Origin: Podarcis erhardii
Lineage: Eukaryota
Strand: one strand, 5' to 3'
Length of the DNA: 64,000 nucleotides
Assembly (NCBI GenBank): GCA_964252035.1
Contig: OZ176204.1
A program made the translations under genes and the position numbers. The notes beneath the pieces are model-generated. The model saw only the letters and a program-made list of their open reading frames with translations, did no database searches and was not told where the DNA came from. Positions 1-59,900 of this stretch are shown here, piece after piece (position 1 is the stretch's first letter; each line of letters begins with the position of its first letter).

Positions 1-941
1 CAGCTGTTTTCGGACTACAATTCCCATCATCCCTGACCACTAGTCCTGTTAGCTAGGGATGACTGGAGTTGTAGTCCAAAAACAGATGGAGGGGCACTGT
101 CAGAGCTGCCCGAGGTCCCAGCTCACAAAGGACCAACGCCAGTTCGTTGTTATATACAAAAGTCTTTATTGAAGTTCAGTTTCGATTTCAAAGCCGTGGC
201 GTGCAGCTCTACGTCTCAAACTCTAGACCGCCGAAGCTCCGTCTGAATCTCCTCCCCCCAGACACCAGTTTAAGACTCTAGCCTTGCTCCACCTCTTCCT
301 TTGCTCTTTCCTCCTCTGGGTCCGCCTGTCCACTGGGGTCTTGCCCTTTCTAGACTCTTCTGACGCTGAATCCCCTGAGTCTTCCCCCTGCCTCCGGTGG
401 GCTTTAGGACCTGGTTCCCAATCCAGGTTTTCTGCCGTCCCGCGCGCCTGTACCTTTGAACTTGGCGCGCGTGCCCAGCCGGCAACCTTTCTCCTGACCG
501 TTACACTGCTCCTGTCACTGCTTCCCTCTTCGGGGGGGCTAGCTGGACCTGACTTCCCCTCCGTTCTCTCACTCTCTGATAGAGGCGTGGTCAGCCCTGA
601 CTCATCTTCTCTCCCTACTGGAGGAGACGCTGGCCCTGACACATGGGACTCTTCCCCCCCACTACGCTCTGGTGGGGGAACTGGTCCTGATCTTCCGCTG
701 CTGCTTTGGGAGTCCCCGCTGGCCCCTTGCTTCTGGTGCGTCCCCCCGGGACCCCCCTTGCCCTGGCCCTCGGCGCCCCCCTCTGGGAATCTTCTGAATC
801 ACTGGAGAAACTCATGGAATCTCTCGGGCCACTGTCATACTCCCCTACGCTGCCCTCAGATTCTTCCCCTTCGCTCTCCGTTTCCTCTCTCCCCTGTGCC
901 TCTGCTCCTGAGCCCCTGACAGGCACGTTTGGCCATGACTG
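1..941. mobile_element. hAT-type MITE (5' part outside window) with its right TIR split by an LTR insertion
   Basis: 1-97 matches the interior of the MITE at 23872-24007. The TIR continues after the LTR as ggcacgtttggccatgactg (922-941). Confidence 0.75.
98..921 (-). mobile_element. Solo LTR, 824 bp (probably Gypsy-type)
   Basis: TGTCAG...CTGACA termini; perfect 5-bp TSD ggcac (93-97 and 922-926); minus-strand AATAAA at 170-165; GC/CpG-rich. Confidence 0.88.
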
Positions 942-3433: not shown

Positions 3434-4114
3434 CCAGGACTCGGATTTGCATGACTGCTCCATGTAAACCAAAGAACATCCACAGTGGCTGGGAACAGTC
3501 CACGCACACCTGCATGCCGGCGTTTGCTCCATTGTGGCTCAAGTGAAGTTCGCCTTCTGAATTCACCATGAATCCCAAAATGTCTCCACTCTGGAGAGGC
3601 ACCAACACCCTACAAACTGCCCAGAACTCTTTCCGGTCAACCAAAGACTCTGGATTATAAGGAAGGTCGCTGGGCCTCAGGGTGCTGGGATCGCAAGTGG
3701 TCACCCCGTAAGAGAGTGTCCCAGTACGTGAAGTGTTGGATTTATTAATCTTGACAAATATGGTCTCATTGATTCTAAGGGGCCTGCTGGTGAAAACCAA
3801 AGTTCTCTCTTCTCGAGCATGCTCCAGGCGAGCCACTGTCTGGTCATCCAGGATTTTAATATGGGCTCCCCTGAGCTGATGGAAACGCAGGTCACTTTCA
3901 AGCTGGGATGGGAGAAGGTGGGAATGTTGAGAGTTGAGGGAGTTCTGTGGAATGGGACACATGGCAGCCATGACATGGAAGTTCTCCTCCTGGAGGTTGA
4001 GGTCGCAGAGGCTCACAGACAGACGGGTGTCCTCAGTCTCTCTGCGTAGTGAAGGCCGCCGGATAGCCGTGAAGGATCTTGGACGGAGACAATCTGGAGC
4101 AATAATTTCACTGT
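3434..4114 (-). CDS. NEURL1: NEURL1 exon 4 (linker + NHR2 domain)
   Basis: ttttcag|ACAGTGAA ... GTCCTGG|gtatgt, 681 nt, phase 1-1. Translates (D)[25 protein letters not shown]...[21 protein letters not shown]...[12 protein letters not shown]...[18 protein letters not shown]. Confidence 0.98.
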
Positions 4115-6639
4115 CTGAAAATCAGAACAAGAGAGGGAAGAGATCACCTGAGGGTAATGTGAACGTCTAGTTTACATTATCAGTTCCTCTATGAGCAATG
4201 CAAGCTTTTGCTGTTACCAGCGTGTTTCCCCTTCTACATGATAAAACAGTCAGATCACTCCATTTTCCAGTGAAATCATCTCTGTAAATATTTCAAGTAC
4301 CATTTCAGGCAGACTCTCTCTGAGTCAGTATCAGATATTGAGGGTGGGGGGCAACACTTGGAAAAGTGAATCAGATGGTAAATAAGCAGGATCCATCAGG
4401 AAACCACTGGCAGATTGCTGGAGAGCCCTGAAAAGTTACGCTCTGTCGACATCTAGAATATGTTTCATGGTAAAAATGAAAAGGAAAGCTGAGCAGGTAT
4501 TTGTCTTTAACATTTTAGAAAGAGGAGGGTGAATCCACAGCTATGCTTGTCCAAACACATTCCCTTTCTTTCCACCTGAGTGGGGAAAGCGGAGTTATGC
4601 CATATAAAAGGATAACTGATTCACACAAAGTGGTCTTGCAAATGCATATCCAAGATGAGAATAATGGCTCTAACTCCACTCAGAAGTTGTGAGAAATGCC
4701 TAGTTTACTGGTGACTAGTTTACAGTGTTGATGTACTCTTAAATTTACTGCTGTCCTTAGGCTGAAATCCTATACTACCTGGGAGTAAATTCCATGACAC
4801 TCAATGCAACTTCTGGGGACATAGGGTTGAATCTAGACTTGATCTCACTTAAGAGTAGATCTACTGAAATCAATGAGAGAATTTAGTCATGACTTACTTA
4901 ATTCCAACTGATTTTAATGGGTCTACTCTAAGCAGGACTAAATTGCAGTCCAACCCAGTTTTTTAAATAGTATTTTACTGTATTTTTATTATAGTTTTTT
5001 GGTTTTGTTATCAGTTCCATTTGGGTGCCACTGTGGCAGAGAGCACAACTCATTATTTTATAAAAGAAATGAATAAACATTTCAAATTCATTCATTCAGC
5101 AAAACTGAGTTAAGATTAGTAATGGAGAGTAATGGAGTGGGACTCAGTTGTGGCTAATATAAATCTCACTGACTCCAATAAGACAGTCATGATGAACGTC
5201 ACATGTTATCTGGTCTGTGTTTTCCCCTCAATATACTTTAGACTGTATTCGTTCTACAGTTTAGTACCGAGGATAGTGAGGTTGGATCAGTATTTTATCT
5301 GGGTTTCAGGTAAAGTTTCCCATGCATTTTATCTACTTTTTATTTTTATTTTATCTTGTCATATTTTCAAAAGTAACAGAAAGCAGACAGCAAATCAGGA
5401 AAAACTAAATCATCACCATCATCCCATATTAGCACAGTAAAAACAACAAAAAGCACTACACACAGAATGCAATGAAGAACCTTAAAAACTTTTTTTTTAA
5501 AAAAAAGAAAATCATGGAAATATTTTTTGAACAGACCTTTTAAAATAACTCAGTTTTTTACTAGCTTCCTAAAACAATCAAAAGATAGAGCCTGGCAAAT
5601 ATTATATAGCCAATGTGATGCTCTCCTGAAGTTGTTGGATACCTCCCACCAGCCAATGGCCAGGGATGATGGAAAGTGCTGTCCAGTAACATACAGAGGG
5701 ACCATTTCAGCCACAAGCAGAATTGCAATTGACATTCCACACCTTCAGGTGTACCAATCTGCTAGGTTCTATGTACATTGGTGGGTGTGGCATAGTTGTT
5801 GTGGGCGGGGCCATTTGAAGCTTTACCACAACCTTTACAATGGCCAACTCTACAATTATATGATTCTATGACATCATTTATGACCCCTGCTTATTTGTGC
5901 AAGTAATATTTTCATTAGCGAAACCTCTTTTCTAGCCGTATGTTTTAATGAAGGGCAGGCATGACACTATTAACACCATCGTGCTATGATGTCAGTTGAT
6001 TTGTGGGCTGCTCACTGATAGCGCTTCCAGTCAGCAAGACACCTCACCAGGGTTGTTGTCTTGCCAGCTTTTTTGTTTCAGTGAAGTACTTCCCTTAGGA
6101 CCACAAAAGTATGTCTCAAGTGAGTGCTGACAGGCAAGCCATCTGTCTTTGATTTGGTTTATAAAAAACATTTCAGCTGCAGGGCTTGTTCACGCTTATG
6201 GTTTACTCCTAAGGCTAAGTAATTAGTCTGTTGCTCACTATAAGCAGAAGTATGAATGCAGCCATTCAAGGACAGCTGTCACAATCCCTTAGCAATTCCC
6301 CACCACCGCCACCCCGGTATAAAGTTTGGATTAACCTGCCTTATCCAACTCACTGAAGTTGTCCGTGAAGCCTAAATTAGACATCATTCTAATTGAACAG
6401 TTAGCAGCCACATTCGGGTGTTGTTGCTTTTTTTAAAAAAAAAAAACCCAATACCAGGTCCATTTTCATGTGTAATGGCAGTGCCCAGTGAGGGTCAATT
6501 TAACCCCTTCTTCCTCAGCCAAACTCCACACACTTACGCTCTGCAATGAGCCTTAGGAGAAAGAAAAGCCTGCACTGAGGCTAATCACTCAAAGACCTGG
6601 TTTCCATATGTAGCAGCATGGAGTATTGTTCTACTTCAA

Positions 6640-17925: not shown

Positions 17926-20335
17926 CATTCCTAGCTCTCAAACTGACTGAAATGAAGATGACAGTAAGAAAGAAGAGCAAGGACAGGAATAATGTTCTTC
18001 CCCATACAACAACCTGAAATGAACATTAAAAGTAAATAAAATGTTAGTCTCCCATGAGGTGACAGGACATTCTCCAACAATTGCATTTCAAGAGCAGTTA
18101 CTCCACCCCCACCCCGCCAAGCTGGATGGGGTACTCCTGGCCTACTTATGCTGTAGCATTTCATTTAGGATCCTCCACCAAGGCAAAGAAGGCAACTTAA
18201 CAGGATTTGGAGGGTGTGTGTGCAAAGGTCTAGGTGGCCACTCTACTTGTCTCCCTCATTGGTGCTCTTTACCAAAAGGAATGACCACCACTCCAAAAAG
18301 GATGGATGTGCTCTGTCTGATAAGCTTCCATATTACTTGCAAAGTCACACTGTAATAATGGCCTTGGAAACTTTCTGCCCCACAGAACCCATTCTGATTA
18401 AAAGAAAAGTGTTCTGTATGCACTGGTAGCCTCCACAATTCTTGTGATGGCATAGTATCTATTTTGGATGAATATGGGTCAGTCCTACATCTTCATCTAT
18501 GTTTTGGCAGTCAAGATAGTCAGCCGTGGTATTTTCTACTTTAGTCATATGTTGTACTCTTAGATACTAGAGGAGTCATTCTGCCTAGAATCTACTTCAT
18601 GATGCTTATCATTTCCTTGTGAGCAGCTTACAACATTACCACTCCTCATCAATAGATGCAAACCTTTACTTTGGCGTTACTTGTGAACACCCTAACATAC
18701 TTTTGTAGAAGTCTGTTTTTCAAATGCAGGAATGCCAGCTGATAATTCTGCTTTGCTTCAATGAGGACCACTAATTCTAAGCTATTAGGCTCTAGGTTGT
18801 GGGCTTCCTAGCTAGGTAAGCACTTGGAAGCTCTAGCAGTGGAATGCCCAACTGAAACCAGTCCTCTTCATTCCACTACTAAATGGAGTCTATAAGTTGG
18901 TGGCTCATTTTCCCAGAACTTAACTGAGCTTTACCTTAGTTTGGAGCAACAACCAAAACCTTTGATGTGGAAGGGACTCAGCTGCTACCTAGTTTACTGT
19001 CAAGCAGGAATACATCTTTCTAAGGACCTATCCCACACTTACAGCTGTTCTAGGAACTCTAGGGCTACAGATCTGATCCACACTCTTCATGCCTCTGACA
19101 CAACAATTTAGTTCCTGGTGTCCATGAATCCGCACAAATTTCTGTCATAATGCCTAGGTTCCTTTTCTCAAGACCTTTCAGACTTCGGGCCAATTCTTTG
19201 TTTACACACTTACAGTCAGGCTGAGAAGTGAGTTAACCTAGGATACAAACAGGATTCAAATTTTCATAGTCTATGGACTATGAGAGGTGAAATGGGCTCT
19301 TGCCATTGTTGACTAGCCTGTGAAGGCAGTTCAGAGATTTTTGGAATTGTGGATCAAACAGGGAGAGACTTTTTGCTAGGGCTGTAATGAAGGACTGGGC
19401 CCACCATAAAATTAGAAGCCTAGGCACATCCTGCCAAGGTCAGGATTACTCTGTAAGTTGGAAGCCCCTCCTTCCCAGGAAGTGACTTATAAGTTGTCTC
19501 TGCATCCTGTTAACAAGGAAGAAGCATCCCAGTAGTGAAAAATGCCTCCCAACTACCTCCTTCACACCCACAGATATATAGATATAGATATATAGGCCAA
19601 TTGGAGAGAGTGTTTTCAGGGAAGCTGCAACTGTGACAGAGAAGATTTTAAAAGATTAAAATACTATTTTGAAAAGAACTAAATGTATGTTTTGGTCCAA
19701 AGGCATTTAATGGAATGTAGAGGTACAGGAACTGTTTGGACTATAGCCTGCCAGTTGTTTATAGTAGAGTGATTAAGAACACCATTGCTACTGAAGCTGC
19801 CATGATCATCCTATGCTTAGAGCCCTTGGAGATAAACACGGCAAGTTACGCCTCTCACTGCACTTTTAAACATATCGCTGCAACAATACCCAGATGGGAA
19901 AAGCTGCACCAAACTCCTAGGCAGGCAAAGCTGGGTCAAATCCACTCCAGCCAGCTTGCCCACCAGATATGGTCTTATTGCATACAGACTTCATGTTAAA
20001 TAGCAGTGCTGCCAGCTGGGGAAACATTTCAATGGAGCTACCAAATATCAGATAGATGGAGAGATAGAAGGGGATACAGCATGCATGCAGTGTCCCTACT
20101 TCATCGATGTCTCATCCGTCTCCAATGTTATAATTCCTCCTGCCTGTTACCGCTGATATTGAGGCACATCTGGTGATCTCTCCTCTGCTGTAATCGCCCA
20201 GGCAAACAATGGACCGATATTCCACTCACCCAGGCACTCTCAGCACCACTATGCACCCACCATTCATACATACATCCACTATCATATATATTACGCATCC
20301 ACTTTAACCAATTATCAGTTTATATTCATCTGATA

Positions 20336-20555
20336 CAGTGGTACCTCGGGTTACAGACGCTTCAGATTACAGACTCTGCTAACCCAGAAATAGTACCTCG
20401 GGTTAATAACTTTGCTTCAGGATGAGAACAGAAATTGCGCGGCAGCAGAGGCCCCATTAGCTAAAGCAGAGGCCCCATTACCTCAGGTTAAGAACAGTTT
20501 CAGGTTAAGAACAGACCTCCAGAACGAATTAAGTTCTTAACCCGAGGTACCACTG
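20336..20555. mobile_element. Tc1/mariner-type MITE, family A copy 1
   Basis: TA|CAGTGGTACCTCGGGTTA...TAACCCGAGGTACCACTG|TA: TIRs with TA TSD. Confidence 0.92.
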
Positions 20556-23424
20556 TACCTATATATTGTGAGTGATGGGACTGTGGAGTTGTGTCATTGA
20601 TATTGGGTGGGTGCTGAGGGTTATCATTTAGATTAGGTTGGTGCCGGAAGTTGTTAGATGGCAGCAATGGTCTAGTCCCATCACTCACAAAACCCTATTA
20701 CACCCCTAGTACCCTAGCTCTCAGTAAAGGCCCAGTATCAACCACTGGGTACCCAGCAGCACCCCTGAAACACGCCATCCTCATTCTCAAACACTCAATA
20801 CTGGGTATGCAGTCACTAGTTGGCTTCTTATCTCATCTTGTGCACCCTGGTATCTTAGCTTTTACTTAGGGCACCAGTGCAGCCCAGCAAGAGTGCTCCC
20901 TACTTTCACCCAGAGGAGCACCCATCAAACATGCCACCCTCAGTTCCAAACACCCTCACACATTCAAACACAGATTGAAAAGGCAATGACACACTTGCCC
21001 TCATGGTGAGCCAAAGGGCAATTCCCTCCGATGACAGCCAACCACAGGGCAGGACCACCTATCTCTCTGGTGTGCAAGTGCCTCACAATGTCCAGAATCT
21101 GTCACCACCTTCCTCTACGACGATCATCAGTAATACTTTGAGGGTTGCTGTGGTTTACTAGGAGTTGAGGGTGGGTAAGTGATAAACTTGCCCTCCGTTC
21201 CCATTCTTCTCACTGCCAAAAAGTCCAGTAACACACAGCATCTAATTCAAGACACTGCACATGCAATACTCCCAAAGATATTTTCTCGGGCTCTCTTCAA
21301 TTTCAATAAGACCAAACCACATCTGTTCACACTGAAGGCTTATTTACACAGACATATAGAACTAGTGTGAAGGGAATCATTCCAGTCAGTTGTGTTTGCT
21401 TGCTGGTGTAAACATTCTTAGTGTTGTTAATTTTTTCATCCACTAACACAAATTAAAATATCTGGAGTTAATTAGAATCCATGTTTGAATCTGACCTGTA
21501 TAAATGTACTGTCCCACCAACTGAAAAGCTGAAAGCAATAATAAAAAGTGGGTTCTATGAAGGTAAAAAGGGGGGGACTTACTTTTGTCTAAACAATGCT
21601 ATGGGCTACTGAAAGAGTGGTAGAAGACCCTATGAGCCATCCCCATCACTGGGAAGTAAGAGAAGACCCTCAGCTCATTATAAGGCTGATGTTGATACAG
21701 TTACAAATGGCTTGGTGCCTTCTATAATTCATTCTGCCAAGAGCTACCCTTAAAAAATATTTGGAAACCACTACTAGCACAAAATGTATCAATTGAGAGG
21801 AGTCACGTCACCTTATATTAGTATTATATCGAGATACCAAAATGTTTCCTGACCCAATTCAAGGTGTTGGATCTTGCATTTTAAGCCCTCTGTGATTTGG
21901 TACCTGGATATCTGAAATAACATCACTCCCTGCATGAATCTACAGGGACACTGCAGCCAATGGAAAGGCTCTATTATGTATACCTCCACTTAATAAGATG
22001 CAGAAAGAAGGGAAGTATGCTTAGTTCTTCTTAATAGCACGGGAATTCTGGAATTTATTGTCAAGGGAGATCCAGCCAGCCACTTCGCTGAGCTGTACCA
22101 TCCTAGCACAAGAGGGATGTAGACTCCAAGATTTGGATGCTGTTGACTCCAATATTTGCAGAAGTGCAAAAAAAAATATCTTTAGGAGGGAAGAGGAGAT
22201 GGGAGGGTGGGTCTGAGGAAGACTGGACATGCTCAGTAGTAGTCATGAAATGCTGGCTGAATGTTTGGGTAGGGAGGGAAAACAGGTGAGTATAGAAGAG
22301 GGTGCAGAGTGGAGAATTCTGGAATGTCTTTCATGGCTGGCTGGCTGGCAGCCTTGAACAGGAATACTTCACACTGCACCAGGCAACATTCATTTCTAGG
22401 TCCCGTATGTTTTTACTTATCTATATTCTTCTTTTTTACAGAAATGTTCACAGTTTACAATTCAGGGTTACAGCTCATTAGGCGTGGTACAAAAGGGCAT
22501 GGGCGAGAAAAGAAAATGAGCACATCAAGTATAACGGCCACAGCACAAGACAATTATAGGAAAGGAGGAGCCATGTTGTAATTAGAAGGGGGCATCACCA
22601 TCCTGCCTCCTGCAAAGCTAGTTGATCCAGTCCCTCAGGCAACGCTGTCCAATGAATTCACATCTCTCAAAAATGGGCACAAAAAGGCTGAGCTATGCAT
22701 ATGCTGAGCTAACCAATGGTCAAATTTTTGAAACAGAAAATTGCTCACATGACTGTGATTTCCAGGTTTCTTTCTTTCAATATATATAAGAAATGCAGAG
22801 AAGTGCATGTTTGGCTGGTAAAAGTGACCTCCTGAGGTCAAACTACTCTGCTTAACCATTTGAAAAATATTAAGGGAGATTGCAAAGATTAATTCCCATA
22901 ATAGAATATTTGCATTTCAACCCTTTTGTTTACTTTTGCTCTTGGTTTAAGAAATCATAATGGGAACAATGACATCCAAAATAAAATACATTACATAACC
23001 ATCAATTAAGATGATGTACCTTTTCCTCTAAACAATGTAATAAAATACCCTTTCTCTTAATTTTCAATGGCATCTGTATATTTGATTTTACAATGTTGAC
23101 TTCTCTGTACTAGGAAAGTAATCCTATTTAATCTGTTTTTAGTAGCCAATGTTTTTTAGTAGATGTCCGACTCCATTATCTTGATTTCTTTTATTTTTAA
23201 AAAATCCTTTGGGGTATTGGAAAAACAGCAGGTCAATCATTACAAACGAGTATGTGTAGAACAGGTTTTAGATTTATATCTCAGTAGTTATTTCAGCTTA
23301 TTTTTAGAAGAAAACAACCAAAAGTTCTCAGAACACAACTCCTGAACCTCCACTCCCTCTAATTTTTGTAGTTTCCCCATCCAATGCCTTTGATTAAAAT
23401 TCACAAGGAAAGGCGAGGAATACC

Positions 23425-23511: not shown

Positions 23512-23871
23512 CCCAAAGCGAGTGTAGAAGTGATGAAGAATTATATGTCAACAAGCACCTGAGCTTTGACACCACAGAATACAGAATGGAGATGCGTAAG
23601 AAACAAGATTAAGAGGCTTCAAGACAATTGCCAAGATTAAGCCTGCCAAAGGCAATTGGAACATGCTATAAATAAAATGTCTGAGCATTAATGTCAATTG
23701 CATAAACTCATTCTAAGCGGCAGGGGAATCTGAATCCTGGTGGCAGGTGCCTCGCTGTACTGGTTATGCTGCTTTGTACTAACTGCATTTAGCTAATTGG
23801 CAGAGACAAGATATCTGCAAGACACTTCTGTCTTTTAGCTGTTGTAATGAAGCAGAGTAAAAAGTTTAACT

Positions 23872-24007
23872 CAGGCATCCCCAAACTCGGCCCTCCAGAT
23901 GTTTTGTGACTACAACTCCCATCACCCCTAGCTAACAGGACCAGTGGTCAGGGGTGATGGGAACTGCAGTCCCAAAACATCTGGAGGGCCGAGTTTGGGG
24001 ATGCCTG
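23872..24007. mobile_element. hAT-type MITE, 136 bp, intact
   Basis: Perfect 35-bp TIRs caggcatccccaaactcggccctccagatgttttg; perfect 8-bp TSD gtttaact (23864-23871 and 24008-24015). Confidence 0.95.
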
Positions 24008-25666
24008 GTTTAACTCTTTGTGAAGGAAAGGAAGATAAAGAAAGTAGGTAACTTGCTGTGAGACGTTTCGAATTCATAGGGAATTATGGGTGTAGGGAAG
24101 GTTGATGGAACTTTAACATCTGTAAACGGATGGAGAGCAAGTGAGTCCACTAGATGTTAGCATTGCTAGCAAACTAACAAGGCTGAGAATTCCATATGTT
24201 TCCCTCTTAAATATCATTACTTAAAATAATATAACAATTCATTCCTTCCATCCACTTTCAAACCCAGAGACTGATTTCAAAATTATTTCTGCTACGAGTC
24301 TTATTTTAGGCATTAAAAGTGCATTTTAATGCCAAGGTTAGCTATGAGAATATTGCACATAACCTCAAGGTTCAGTGATGTGCATTAGCCCTCTTCTTCC
24401 CTGCCTTGCTAAAATGGGTAAAAATCCCAGAATGATTCACATATAATGCTAGACACATTGTTTACACTATAACACAAATATTATTTTATCAGCAATATTC
24501 TGATCTTTCTATCAGAATATAAGCCACTCATACCATCATTTTGTATGCATTAAAGATACAACAATGTGACCTTCTCTAATGAACAGTTACACTAACTTCA
24601 ACTCACTTAAGATTTGAATAAATCTTAAATGTTACATGAAGCATCAGTAATATCACAGATATCTGTCATACACTATGCATACACTATCCCTATGCAAAAG
24701 CTGCTAAGCATGTCAACTCATGTAATCGCAAAGTATGTCAACTCATAGTGTAAAAAGGATTGTTGTGTTAATTGGTCTTGAATTTTAGTTGAACCTCACA
24801 GCTAAACTTCCATTTATTCTGGATCTTTGCCTCACAAGTGCTCAGGAACTCTCAGCTCACGAGGAACTCTCACAACAGAGCTTTTAAAGCACAATAAAAT
24901 GATTTTTCATGGCTGTACTTTTATTGTGTAATAAAATGATCTACTAAGGATTCTCCTAGAGCCCAGGAAACATATTTTATTTTCTAAACCTAATATTTTT
25001 AAGAAGAGCAATTTCATTTAAATAGAAGTAACAACCAGCAAATCCTTCTTTCAGGTAAAATGTGAGCCATGCATAAACTATGAAATGCATTTACCCATGT
25101 CAGATTAAGAGCGTTAAATAAGATAATGGGGAACTTTTATGGAGTGCATTCCATGCTTCAGAATGTGCACCAATAGTCTGTCATAACAAAATTCTTCTAT
25201 TAATGATATTTATTTTCATTATGATTTATTACTTCCAGACCCATTTTGTTTGCTTGGTCTTTGACGTCCTTAGGAACAAGAGTGAGGAATGTAAGGTTTA
25301 CATGGATGGCATCAAGCAGCACTTTCTAACAACAAACACGGTCTGATTCTTGTTCTGCTGTGTAGACAAAACATGGGTGAAACTCCACTGGAATTTATTT
25401 AGCATTCCAGCTTTGCTCAGGCTTATTAATTAAAGGACAAAGGTGGGAGATATTTTAAGGCTGAGACTACTAAACATATGAACTGAATCACTTTCTACCT
25501 TTTTGCATCCTGTTCAAGATGGGATAATAAAGTAGTGAACACAACCTTTATTCATGTTGTGCTGTTTCCAGAGGGTTGTACTTTTTCCAAAGGGACAACT
25601 ATGATAATACATTGCAGCAAAAGCAACAGAGAGTCCTGTGACACCTTAGAAATGAACAGATTTATT

Positions 25667-30490: not shown

Positions 30491-31401
30491 ATCAGGGTTC
30501 GGTATAACATGCTACACAAAGTAGCTGCAATGCAAAACAATCATTTTATGACAGAAAGTAGTTAACCACATGGATGCAAAACAGAGAGTGGGTGTATGGA
30601 GATAGTTTCCAGTAAAGCATACAGAAATAAAAAAAGAGCAGTAGTTTGTTAATGAATGGATGAATTCAACAATTCAGCAACCTTCCAAACACAAGCTTTA
30701 TGATTCTTCTGAAAGGCTGCAAATTGATTTTGTCCTTTGTATACCTATCTCTCATTACACAGGTCAGCTGTTCAGAAATAGGTATTGACCCGAAACCATT
30801 TTTTTTAAAAGAACAGATCCCTAAAGGCACTGGCAAAGTCTCCATCACTGCACATATTTATAATCAGGAAATAACAGGAGTGTGGTAACTAGACAGAGTT
30901 CAATCTTTTCTTGCCTAAAGCATAGGGTCAGGTTGGATGAGTCAAGTACACAATGTGCCGCTTTCTGAACGCTTGCTATGTGCAAATTCATTTATCTGAA
31001 CACAAGGAATTAGTACGCAAACCTCACTATACAGCACAGATTTAGATATCTGAATAGTGAGCATTCTTTACTTCCTTGTTTGCCTTTTGCTGGGTGGCTG
31101 AGAAACTGTGGTGATCTGTACTATAAGCAAGGTTTCAGAGGGTTTTCAGGTTTTTTGAGGTCAAAAATTCTGTGGTCAGGAACACATTAGAAATTTCCCC
31201 ATAGGAATCAATGGAAATTATTGGCTCATTATGTGAATGCTCACCTAATGAATGATTTCAAGGGAACTTATTGCGTTCTGATAGCGGGACCTGCATGTAG
31301 TTTTTCTTCAGGCTGTACTGTCAAGAAAGGCATGCTACATTTCTATCCTAAACTATATTAACCCCATTACGATTTTTTTTAAAAGTATGTGAACATTAGT
31401 A

Positions 31402-31627
31402 CAGTGGTACCTCGGGTTACATACGCTTCAGGTTATAGACTCTGCCAACCCAGAAATAGTGCTTCAGGTTAAGAACTTTGCTTCAGGATGAGAACAGAAA
31501 TTGTGCTCCGGCGGCACGGCAGCAGCAGGAAGCCCCATTAGCTAAAGTGGTACCTCAGGTTAAGAACAGTGTCATGTTAAGTAAGGACCTCCGGAACGAA
31601 TTAAGTACTTAACCCGAGATACCACTG
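31402..31627. mobile_element. Tc1/mariner-type MITE, family A copy 2
   Basis: TA-flanked CAGTGGTACCTCGGGTTA TIR; same interior as 20336-20555. Confidence 0.92.
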
Positions 31628-32009
31628 TATGTTATGAGACAGAGTTGATTCAGGGGCTATGGGGAGAATATTATAAAGTGTCTCCAGGCACCTAGACTAC
31701 CTTCAGAATGAATGTGTTTATGTGGAAAATCACTTGTTTGAAAATGCTCTATCAAAGGCTAGCTGCAGACTAGCCATGTTTGTATTTGCTAACTTTCCAT
31801 GTGCACAGAGGTAGTACCACCCCACACTCAAACTTCAGAAAGACCACCACTCAAGTTGCCACAATATTTCTCAAGACATTTATTATGGGGCAAATTCAGC
31901 TGTTGCCCTGCATCCATATTCATGTCTGGAGCATGGAGAAGTGCTGTAATGATGTCACAACTTCTTGATTTTCATGGGGAAGAAAAGTTAACCAACTATT
32001 CAGTTGCAG

Positions 32010-35390: not shown

Positions 35391-36089
35391 TATCATACGA
35401 ATGCTGGCAAAGATTCAAGGCAATCCTATGCATGCCTACTTGGAGGTAAGTTTCATTCTGTTAAATGGGACTTACACCCTAATAAGTGCATTTAGGGTTT
35501 CAACTGCAGTTGCTTACTGCATTAAGGAAAACAGTTTCCATTTGGTCAGATTCCTGTTTAGCAGGCGAGAAACCATTAAGAATGGACTCTCACACTGGGA
35601 ACCCCATATAAAGAATTTTCTACACTGGGGTGGGGAGCCTGTGATCCTCCAGATGTTGCTGAACTATGTCTCCCATTAGCCTGACCATTAGCCACACTGA
35701 CTGCTGCTGGTGGAAGTTGGAGTTCATCAACACCTAGATGCCCATCTCTGTTCTACACAATTTGGCACCAGACAGTAAGCTCCAAACTAGGATATGTCAG
35801 CTGAGGATAACGCTTCAAAAGCATCTGAGGAAGAGGACACTAGTTCACAAAAGCTAATGCCACAATAGATTAATAAATGTTTGGACCTTTAAAGTGGCAG
35901 AAGCAGCAGACTGAGATGGCCTGCTCAGGTGGCACCATGAGGACAGCATAGATGAAGGCAGGAGCTCATGTATGAGTGGTGCAGCAATACTTTTTAAAGT
36001 GCTGGCCCTAGGGAGGAGATGCCTTCTGTGCCCTACTTTGGACTGCAATATTTCTTGGCCTTGCACCTCTTCCCCTCTGCATTCACATA

Positions 36090-36313
36090 CAGTGGTACCT
36101 CAGGTTACAGATGCTTCAGGTTACACTCCACTAACCCAGAAATAGTACCTCAGGTTAAGAACTTTGCTTCAGGATGAGAACAGAAATTGCACAGCAGCAG
36201 TGTGGCGGCAGCGGTAAGCCCCATTAGCTAAAGTGGTACCTCAGGTTAAGAAAAGTTTCAGGTTAAGAACAGACCTCCGGAACAAATTAAGCTCTTAACC
36301 CGAGGTACCACTG
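36090..36313. mobile_element. Tc1/mariner-type MITE, family A copy 3
   Basis: TA TSD, CAGTGGTACCTC TIRs, family A interior. Confidence 0.92.
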
Positions 36314-37534
36314 TACCTCTTAAGATATCATAACCAAATTTTGCTTGATGGTCCCTGAGATCAAGGAACAGGCCTTCATCTATGTTTAGTTACAACTGGA
36401 TGCTATTTTCATTCAAGATGGAGGGTATGTTTGAAAGGAGAATATCAATACTTGTCTACACTTCCTGTCTTACAGAGTAATGTAATTTAATACAGACATA
36501 CTAAACATGCAGCTTTCACCAGAATTGCATGCTGACTGAGTGTAAATAGCAATTCACACTTCAAACACCAGTTGTGTAAAAGGAGATTCCAGCTGTGAAT
36601 ATTTTACGGCCATGTTTTATTTCCATGGTCTACAAATCAACGTAAAAGTTGTTTGCTCTCCTTCAGTGGGCCTCAGATAGAGTACACTTCTTTAAAAAAA
36701 ACACCATTCCTGCTGCTAAATATAAACCAGCAGTTAATCTTTTGGAAGAAAGAAAGAAGAAATGCTAGTCATAGTATTTGGGTATCTAGTTCTGGAATAC
36801 TTGTAAACCTGCCAGCATTCTCTTCCAGTTTAAATACATTTTAATGGAAAGCCTATCCTGGGCACATTTTCCATGCACACTGCAGTAACTTGGAACCTAT
36901 CCTATTAAATTCCAGTAAGAGTATGAGACAGAATTAGGTGCAGAGATGTTAAAAGCCAAGTCTTTTGAATATGCAAAAAAGCTGGAAAAAACTGGGAACA
37001 GTCGGAACAGAAATAATAAATGAGTAATACAGAACCATCGTAAGAATTAAAACAATGGTTAAAATTCAGTGGGTGTGAATGACACAAGGCAATATCAATG
37101 GATTAAAGGGCAGGAACAGTTGTGAATCATTGTGGTGTTTCTTGTGTTATGGGCCACACAGAAAGCACTGGCTCATTAAAGTACAATTACATTGGTCCCT
37201 GACTTTTCCCACTTATGAGATCAGTATGTTGGCCTGTGAGCTCAACCTTCACTCAGGACAGATTCTTCTTTTCTCCCCCCCCCCCAGTCACTGGAAACGA
37301 ACTATGAGGAATTTTGCTACAGTCTCTTAAAAGGTTCAGCTTTTCACATAAGTAGAGAGGGTTGCGTGATGTTAAAGGATGAAAACTTTGCACCATGGCA
37401 AGTTAGCAGCCCATGGCCAATTCAACTTCCATAAGCAGGTCTATGGGTCCTCTGCACCCATGCAGAACCTGCACCCCAATAATATCAACTTTACCTAAAG
37501 AAAACAATGTTTTTGACCCAAACAAAACTCTGGA

Positions 37535-56666: not shown

Positions 56667-56908
56667 CAGTGGTACCTCAGGTTACATATGCTTCAGGTTA
56701 CATATGCTTCAGGTTACAGACTCCGCTAACCCAGAAATAGTGCTTCAGGTTAAGAACTTTGCTTCAGGATGAGAACAGAAATCATGCTCCAGTGGCGCGG
56801 CGGCAGCAGGAGGCCCCATTAGCTAAAGTGGTGCTTCAGGTTAAGAACAGTTTCAGGTTAAGTACAGACCTCCAGAACGAATTAAGTACTTAACATGAGG
56901 TGCCACTG
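56667..56908. mobile_element. Tc1/mariner-type MITE, family A copy 4
   Basis: TA TSD and TIRs; internal 16-bp duplication ggttacatatgcttca. Confidence 0.92.
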
Positions 56909-59900
56909 TATATAATTAGGGCTAATCATTGCTGATAAGGGGCTACTGTGGAAGAGATGCACCACCTTCAAGCCATGCTTGTATGCTTCGCGGGGTTATC
57001 AGATTGGCCACAAAACTAGAACTTGTCTGATCCAAAAAGCCTCTTCTTATGTTCTTATGCTTGCTTGGACAGTGGGAATCAGAAGGATGAAAACGGTATG
57101 CCCAGCCATACCGAAATGATGAAATTTGGTCACATATAAGTGTCTTTCACACAATTCTTCTACTGCACAATGAACAAGCTAAAGGGGAGCAGGATGAGAG
57201 CAGCAAGCCCCACCCCCTGCCATGCATGTATGTGTCTGCACATCTGCAACAGGCCTACATGCATACAAACTGTATGTACCTAAGCTTGTGTGCTTGACTG
57301 AGGATACTGCAAAAGTACATATGAACCAGCAGAGGTGGGATCTGCTGCTACAAACCTGTTTCCCATCATGCATGTTCATCGTACTTGCCCATTGTACATG
57401 TCAATCATGCAGCAGAGTTAGAGATAGCATGATTGTGTGGCAGGGTACTGCCATCTTCAACTAGGGCAACTGAAAGGTTATGGGATGATGAGAAAATATA
57501 TTGAGAAGATGTCCGTGCAATAAGGGAATGAAGAAGATGTATTGGAGAATTGGAAAGGAAGACTTTTAAGGATAGAGTTTTCAGCTAATGCCATCCATTT
57601 TTCTGGAGGTAATGCATTAGGAAAATCTGAGCAATTGCTGTTGGAAGCTGAGCTTAACAGGTATCAATTAACAGGGACAATGGGGTAAGTTAAGGGTAGA
57701 AAATCTTTGCTAGCAATTATCTTTGTGGTATTTGTACTTGGTAAAAACCTGGTGTCAGTTTCATTTGGTTTTGCAGTGCAAATGGCATGTGTCTCAGCTG
57801 CAAATATTTGTTTGCATATATAATAATAAGGGCATCAGCTGTCTACATTTTATTTTTAAATCTACCCTTTTACCACCATTGTGTGATCTGGTTAATGGGA
57901 AAGTACATTGTTTCTAGTACAGTGGAATATTCACTTCAAATATTCAAAGAGAGTTGGAGACCAACTGGCAGTGCAAATACCTGATTCCAGGATTTACCCA
58001 TTGGTAACCTTGCTTGGTTCCTAAAACTGTCGCGTGGACAATTCAGCATCCTAATTCATCTATTCTACTTTAAAACCAAACACAGAGTAAAATGAAACCA
58101 GCAGCTTCAGCAGCCTGACACAATCTGGGATTAGTTTTGCCAAATGGTCACTTCACGGGAGCAGCAACAGGGAGCATGGCACCATTGCAAGTATACCTTC
58201 TTGATACACATGGTTTTTTTTACAAACACATGCTTCTTACTCTCATAGGCCTAAAAAGCAGTGTGTAAAGTGACTGTAGCCACACAGGACAGAAAATCAG
58301 ACCTATTGTCCCGCTTACTTCTCCAAGGCTCCTGCTGACCTGTAGAAACTGTTCTTAAAAGAGAAATATATGTGTGATTGTTTCATCATGCTCTCACCAA
58401 ATACTGGAAGTCCTACCCTTAACATTGCTTTATTTTATCCATTACTGGGGTACCATCTGCATAGCTGATAAAAGAGGAAAGAAGAATGAAGTAAACCAGT
58501 GTTGAGATAAGCAGTTAAAAGGATTTCTATGGCAAGAGAGCTGAACAAGCCTTCATCTAATTGCATGCAAGCTTACTTCGTCAGATTGTCATAACTGTTA
58601 AGGTCTGCAGTGAACCTATTTTAAAGCCCTGAACATTCAAGGTCACCCAGCAAGTATGTATGGTTATCAAGAAAGGAAATTAACATAGGAAAAGAACAAA
58701 AAAAGGCCCCTCGCTCTTGGAACATCACCACATAATTTGAAAACCAATATTTTTCATATAACTTCATTGCAGGGCAATACAAGAATTCCAGGTAGAATAT
58801 GAAACCAACTCTATGTTTAAAGCAACTTACCCAGACAACAACAAAAAACACTGTGACAAGTCATTCTCTGTCCTATGAGCCTCCCCAAGACAATCTACTG
58901 TTTGAACATTTTTATATTAACTTACATGAAACAAATATGAATTAGTGGAAAATAGCTCCCCCATTGTTCATCATGTTTTACAACAGGGGGGAAATATAGA
59001 AAAGGATACTTTTTCCTGTTAATGGGTAAACCCAGCATGAATAAACCTGCACTCTCCACTAGAGGCAACAGAGAGAGGGGTCAAACTCACTGAAGAAAGA
59101 CTATCACAACCTAGGGACTTGATAAAGCTTCCACCGGAAGGGTACATTTGATCTACTCTGTACCCAAGTCCACCTGCAACAAGCCAAATGTTTTCTAATC
59201 AAACATGAGAACCAGCAATGTGTGGTGTAAACAGATTGGAAGAAACTTCTTTTCACTGGCCTGACTTGTCCCAATCCTGCTGGCTCTTCATACCGACGTA
59301 TGCAAGACTGACAGACAGCTTGGACAATTTGTCCCACCAGAAAATCCTTGGAATAGACCAAATTTGCCAGAATAACAATATAAAAACATGGGACCCAATG
59401 GAGCTGAAGGATCTGTTTCTGTGGAGTTTTGAGATGTAAAAGAGTTCGGGGGGGGGAGGGGAACATCCATTGTTTCCTGTGAACCTGCAAATGCTCAAGA
59501 GTACAGAATGTCTTTCATGAAATGTTAGAGTCAAAGAGCCACATGCCACATTTGCCAACAAGGTCTGAAGAGGCATTTTTGCTTGAACATGCTGACCCCA
59601 CCCCTGCTGCCTCCGATTAGAAACCCTGATAAAGCAGGGTTCTTGATCACGGGAAGGCTTGAAGTGTATTCATGTGAACATGCTTACGAGCCCTCTTACA
59701 AGCCAGTGAATGTTGCAAGATTATGCATGGAAGCAGCAGAGTCAGTGCACACAGCCCCACTGCTCCAACATGATTACAATTTCCAAATAAGGCTATGGTG
59801 AGGTCTTTTTATTAAGAATAATAATACATTTATATCTTGGCCTTTCCTCCCCAAGGAGCTCAGAGAGGCAAACAAATACACAATTTTAAACAAAAGCAAA

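Follow-up and report, generated by a model that had tools for sequence, protein, structure and literature searches.

Long terminal repeats (LTRs) are usually treated as non-coding regulatory DNA. Can one of them nonetheless code for protein across its whole U3 and, if so, for which protein? The question is raised by an 824-bp solo LTR with TGTCA...TGACA ends on the minus strand of a 64,000-nucleotide stretch of Podarcis erhardii DNA (contig OZ176204.1, assembly GCA_964252035.1; "the window" hereafter means this whole stretch). A sequence-only reading had joined two open minus-strand frames of this LTR into ~232 codons, and had proposed that U3 was coding in the progenitor element, either as a C-terminal tail of Pol running into the LTR or as an accessory protein analogous to retroviral nef/sag. 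The LTR belongs to a family (family A) for which a search of the lizard's own genome gave at least 3,293 first-look candidates, the best 40 of which, scored against the window LTR, are 97–100% identical to it. Its source element is a Gypsy chromovirus, young and very abundant, whose primer site is of the self-priming type. As to its setting, the LTR was inserted in an arm of a ~160-bp palindromic repeat (window 1–93 and about 927–958; related copy at 23859–24019), which we take to be probably a MITE. Elsewhere in the window, a ~230-bp interspersed repeat occurs in four copies (20333–20560, 31400–31638, 36087–36318, and 56693–56919) that are 81–89% alike.

Re-reading the letters returned the two open frames, the stop at 225–223, and the three repeat codon strings exactly as described, and the joined frame, counted from LTR base 2, is exactly 232 codons long and unbroken in 23 of the 29 closest family A siblings. 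The break itself had been misplaced: it lies not at the G run at 783–776 but roughly 30 bases away, and the first frame of the window copy continues open to a stop at 617–615, the copy being one base out of frame from about 747 onward (Table 1). Because it comes before the predicted transcription start, is frameshifted, and has no frame upstream of it, the window copy is probably a silent, frameshifted relic. Coding capacity is nevertheless not a property of the progenitor only, as had been supposed, for copies 97–100% alike still carry the frame. The peptide repeats fare less well as evidence. Their differences do fall mostly at third positions (12 of 19 pairwise differences), but this count is weak evidence because the repeats had been chosen for amino-acid identity; moreover, subfamily C has two units and subfamily B, though active, has none, which leaves the weight placed on them unsupported. 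We also considered a tandem-repeat origin of the units and rejected it; both repeat finders were blind to them at the DNA level.

Table 1. Features of the window LTR and of related loci (window coordinates unless a locus is named).
Feature	Position	Strand	Remarks
Solo LTR, Gypsy chromovirus family A	98..921	-	TGTCA...TGACA
Target-site duplication GGCAC, left copy (5 bp)	93..97	+	
Target-site duplication GGCAC, right copy (5 bp)	922..926	+	
U3-encoded C-terminal tail of Pol/integrase	223..920	-	232 codons + stop in siblings; broken in window copy
Acidic, Ser-rich N-terminal part of U3 tail	771..920	-	Most constrained segment, dN/dS 0.06–0.26
Private frameshift of window copy, about 747	741..752	-	From alignment to natural sibling L011
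SGPVPPP / SGPASPP / SGPASPP repeats (at 690, 639, 552)	532..690	-	Least constrained segment, dN/dS 0.35–0.58
RAPSS codons, nucleotide-identical in five subfamilies	455..470	-	Likely promoter motif inside frame
Basic cluster RRTQRRKEQRKRW	289..327	-	Candidate nuclear localisation/chromatin-binding segment; same register in family D
TATA-like TTAAAC over L-N-W codons	268..273	-	29 bases upstream of predicted start; promoter role from position
11-base complement of full elements' primer-binding site	234..244	-	Predicted 5' end of R (self-primer)
AATAAA polyadenylation signal	165..170	-	
Family D loci	L241-L264, e.g., L254		Pol through U3; self-priming-type site

What kind of element carried this LTR can be read from two-LTR copies, which hold gag between direct LTRs and, overlapping it, a pol that encodes PR-RT-RH-IN in this order plus an SH3 domain, but no env (Pfam calls made on natural copies L187, L071, and L031). 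This layout makes it a Gypsy element, and the TG...CA ends and short target duplication expected of Ty3/Gypsy are present. Behind the SH3 domain, at the integrase C-terminus as in chromoviruses, lies a degenerate chromodomain: Pfam Chromo scores 16 bits in families A and B against a cut-off of 25.1 and gives no match in family C, and a more distant family D has a canonical domain (38 bits). All listed top structural matches of the chromodomain model are chromodomains (probability 0.99, though the best E value, 0.037, is weak), a PDB sequence search with the domain gave no matches, and its dN/dS is 0.04. The primer-binding site is not tRNA-like; its complement is an 11-base segment lying within the LTR, found in families A, B, C, and D, with both sides changing in step; the self-priming folds have z of -3.2 and -3.0. 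By sequence, then, the primer site appears to be of the self-priming type of the Tf1/sushi group, and from this predicted arrangement transcription is predicted to start at window 244. Named relatives of the element come from Podarcis lizards. For the tail, database searches gave no Pfam family and no relative beyond lacertid-named or unnamed records. The best ESM Atlas scores (0.81 and 0.80) are leads only. Separately, family A element L031 carries a 1.9-kb insertion (about 3650–5550 in element orientation) with a fragment, translated as NCAAIDYLLMLHYYGCEQ..., that we presume to be envelope-like.

In natural full-length copies, PR-RT-RH-IN-chromodomain continues in one frame through the polypurine tract into U3, i.e., the polyprotein reading frame runs on into the 3' LTR, as the Pol-tail alternative had envisaged. 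Single open frames of 1,547 codons (L071) and 1,570 codons (L187) lead from protease through all of U3 and close near the LTR end, the Pol stop falling about 20 bases inside the predicted R. The same fusion is seen in public data: all four of the longer database matches, Podarcis muralis Gypsy integrase proteins in UniRef, cross the junction in frame, two of the four reaching the same C-terminus. Against this, one P. muralis protein, P0014, terminates in the short frame. Fused proteins are already in UniRef, under automatic names. An earlier conclusion of ours, that Pol ends in another frame, had come from the first eight family A junctions, where Pol was out of frame and an ATG stood at -5; it was overturned by more copies and by the P. 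muralis proteins. Family D, found as a control, is a distant Gypsy (integrase ~45% identical; 408-bp LTR) in which 10 of 11 copies keep the frame across the junction, 8 of 11 have a tail open to the terminal stop, and U3 dN/dS is 0.22–0.30. We consider it highly probable that the U3 frame is the end of the Pol of a lizard Gypsy chromovirus, likely working as an integrase tail that is disordered and serves nuclear import or chromatin docking.

Many copies, however, are off-frame at the junction. Those with the junction in frame number 10 among 36 distinct copies of family A, 20 among the 29 scored in B, and 9 among the 27 scored in C (one of 30 B copies lacked the anchor and three of 30 C copies the junction; the B set was gathered with an off-frame copy as query, as was part of the A set). 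The frame is lost where neighbouring G runs of the polypurine tract have changed in length. In family C, short G6–G7 runs make up 23 of 78 run-copies in the tract vs. 1 of 130 among equal runs elsewhere; the corresponding counts are 38/108 vs. 13/216 in family A and 6/90 vs. 3/90 in family B. Such variation fits slippage after insertion or assembly error. By eye, the tract in families A and C (L072-L101, L132-L161, and L191-L220) shows a G-quadruplex-like motif made of adjacent G runs. The family A clade nearest the window LTR (L072-L076, L082, L087, L094, and L096) has mostly one off-frame allele with U3 open, and may have spread from an off-frame source.

Could the tract instead act as a switch, so that two integrase forms are normal, a short one ending 10–25 codons into U3 and a long one made through ribosomal or polymerase slippage on the G runs? 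The excess of short tract runs in family C speaks for such a switch, as do the facts that the one-base-short phase is the commonest in A (15/36) and C (15/27) and that a short allele is common to most of one family A clade. Yet the off-frame alleles are heterogeneous (16 classes among 36 A copies) and scattered over the tree, the youngest family (B) is mostly in frame, and family D is frame-stable. A duplicated pair with the same flank (L089/L100) differs at the junction, which indicates change after insertion or assembly error. We regard the two-form switch as quite unlikely.

The other alternative put forward in the sequence-only reading, a separate accessory protein, would start at an ATG five bases upstream of the 3' LTR, being made from a spliced or internal transcript. 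The retroviral nef and MMTV sag proteins are indeed coded within U3, as separate proteins with spliced or dedicated transcripts; the lizard frame, unlike these, continues from Pol and has no conserved ATG. That ATG stands in a GGGATGG context throughout families A–C but is replaced by GTG in family D, where the terminal basic cluster keeps the same register. Family A has a donor-like GTAAG directly after the 5' LTR, and its R-U5 has no ATG, but family B has GCAAG at this place, and the bases are accounted for as primer-binding site; a spliced nef-like transcript, which we had entertained from family A alone, was dropped on the family B GCAAG and the family D GTG. U3 does often stay open in off-frame copies, as an independent gene would have it, but no joint of the 5' LTR end to the tract occurs among the 15 listed of 39 joints in contigs of four runs. 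Contigs of these runs (three presumed RNA) cover 30 of 30 bins of element L033, a coverage that carries neither strand nor level. A nef/sag-like gene is disfavoured and its probability low, whereas the Pol-tail half of the original proposal stands.

Diverged subfamilies, too, have kept the U3 frame. The frame is open for 218 codons in 29 of 30 family B copies and for 210 codons in 22 of 25 family C loci (these were picked by protein search, which biases them toward open frames, and two were not parsed); it measures 212 codons in subfamily B2, and a neighbouring LTR of family B that is only about 68% identical retains both frame and frame end. Between subfamilies, dN/dS is 0.24–0.38 (Nei–Gojobori) rather than about 1, the bootstrap interval lying below 1 in 14 of 15 pairs, and for 12 natural copies a codon model estimates omega at 0.39 and kappa at 3.2, with a 2x log-likelihood gain of 67 vs. 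omega = 1. Four of the other five frames have dN/dS of 0.68–1.9 and 3–15 stops. Among invariant degenerate residues, 52 of 77 use differing codons between subfamilies. Three results temper this picture. Codon-blind alignments give clean whole-codon gaps for close pairs only. Within-family singletons have a pN/pS of 0.30–0.35, and since this is similarly low, low Nei–Gojobori values alone are no proof; with CpG sites excluded, the 0-fold/4-fold ratio is 0.48–0.80, with p<0.05 in 5 of 10 non-independent pairs, and the selection signal becomes modest. Constraint on U3 (dN/dS 0.37) is moderate, like that on the internal tail directly upstream (0.34), and far weaker than on the enzymatic core (0.05–0.12). 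The U3 frame is real and selected.

That the frame is instead a by-product of purine-rich promoter DNA, or the shadow of a selected antisense frame (window plus strand, 227–919) sharing its wobble positions, is most improbable. In its favour, the antisense frame is open in family A with dN/dS of 0.35–0.51, two islands within the frame are kept at the nucleotide level, and the CpG-free signal is modest. Against it, a stop interrupts the antisense frame in B and C2, and its dN/dS is always above that of the sense frame; the sense frame, for its part, is free of stops, ends at a fixed place, changes length between subfamilies in whole codons, and carries on from Pol. A further idea, that a short 3' UTR lets the RNA avoid decay, was set aside by reasoning alone, because most ribosomes would stop at gag and because it predicts no residue-level constraint.

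The Pol frame nonetheless appears to share its DNA with regulatory signals. The RAPSS codons form an island (minus-strand sequence GCGCGCCAAGTTCAAA) identical across five subfamilies, which to our eye resembles E2F/CHR cell-cycle promoter elements; from their sequence, this island and the LNW island are likely promoter motifs within the frame. As a protein, the tail is 54–56% Ser/Gly/Glu/Arg; the stretch from the chromodomain onward is mainly acidic and of low complexity, with the terminal window at a net charge of +4 to +9, and its U3 part holds 9–12 S/T-x-x-D/E sites. A fold of the 490-residue tail gave a mean pLDDT of 36, which is no evidence for disorder because the SH3 part failed as well. 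We envisage that the tail is translated from genomic RNA as the end of Gag-Pol, with translation confined to the 3' LTR copy, since the predicted start comes after any 5' or solo copy and such a copy has no upstream frame. The tail would then remain on integrase, presumably disordered given its Ser/Gly/Glu/Arg-rich composition, and its terminal basic cluster may, by analogy with Ty1 integrase, be an import or tethering signal. That the tail serves nuclear import or chromatin docking is a proposal built on this analogy, to which we give roughly even chances.

Among described systems, the nearest in working is the plant CRM group A, whose polyprotein frame likewise extends into the 3' LTR according to the portions of the accounts available to us (PMC3059260; PMC3605345). 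As far as the available text of Neumann et al. (2011; PMC3059260) goes, CRM elements use a tRNA-Met primer and carry a CR motif in place of a chromodomain; the lizard element, on the other hand, has a self-complementary primer site and, judged by fold and Pfam, keeps an upstream chromodomain fold rather than a CR motif. Its ~230 low-complexity codons, moreover, span the whole U3 together with the TATA-like site and the predicted start, and its host is a vertebrate, which sets it apart from CRM as described in those portions. The lizard element works like CRM but, because its primer differs and its chromodomain is kept, is not a CRM member. In layout it resembles the Tf1/sushi (V-clade) chromoviruses, with which it shares Gypsy domain order, chromodomain position, and a self-priming-type site, an arrangement reported for that group (available parts of PMC6317226 and PMC2774666; self-priming, PMC6317226), and its TGTCA-type end matches the Sushi 5' motif TGTYANR (PMC3601003, likewise in part). 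This likeness is one of layout and motifs; the available parts of the Tf1/sushi accounts (PMC6317226; PMC2774666) describe no Pol run through U3. A functional model is offered by the integrase C-terminal modules of Ty1 and Ty5, which, in the available portions of their descriptions, have a long disordered tail bearing an NLS, phosphorylation sites, and a short peptide used for targeting (PMC8487063; PMC9673352; PMC7459421). The likeness here is by description, and these are Copia elements in which, unlike in the lizard element, integrase is internal and the tail is not LTR-encoded. We found no report in the literature of a U3-coded Pol tail in vertebrate Gypsy elements, although Butler et al. 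(2001), Repbase, or GyDB may record one.

Where the copies lie offers a lead on what such a tail might do. On chromosomes other than contig C19 and the small contigs, internal-sequence copies within 0.5 Mb of a chromosome end number 21 of 32 in family C, 7 of 32 in family A, and 3 of 37 in family B, where 1.3% is expected; the count for family D is 3 of 38. The strong enrichment of family C (L191-L220) is found at both chromosome ends, most of them telomere-capped in the assembly, and partly reflects duplication and nesting, three C loci having one shared flank. With age and retention uncontrolled, targeting of chromosome ends by family C is a lead only. Contig C19 (30 Mb), which may be W-chromosome-like, holds 3–15 times its expected share of family A–C copies.

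At its most ambitious, the tail reading would describe a vertebrate lineage of self-priming chromoviruses in which protein code has taken over the entire U3 promoter, yielding an integrase targeting tail that backs up a degenerate chromodomain and directs where copies insert (toward chromosome ends in the case of family C), with the unstable G-run tract as a tail-dropping switch; we think this full picture rather unlikely. If true, a lineage-wide U3 targeting tail would parallel the centromere targeting of plant CRM, in an animal. More immediately, annotation pipelines can make spurious "hypothetical proteins" from such LTRs, as in two Podarcis lilfordi entries. The tail is a candidate for the means by which a vertebrate chromovirus with a degenerate chromodomain achieves nuclear entry and site choice. 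Thousands of lizard LTR copies hold ~700 bases of integrase-coding sequence laid over a likely promoter, and promoter evolution in these elements would therefore be tied to protein constraint.
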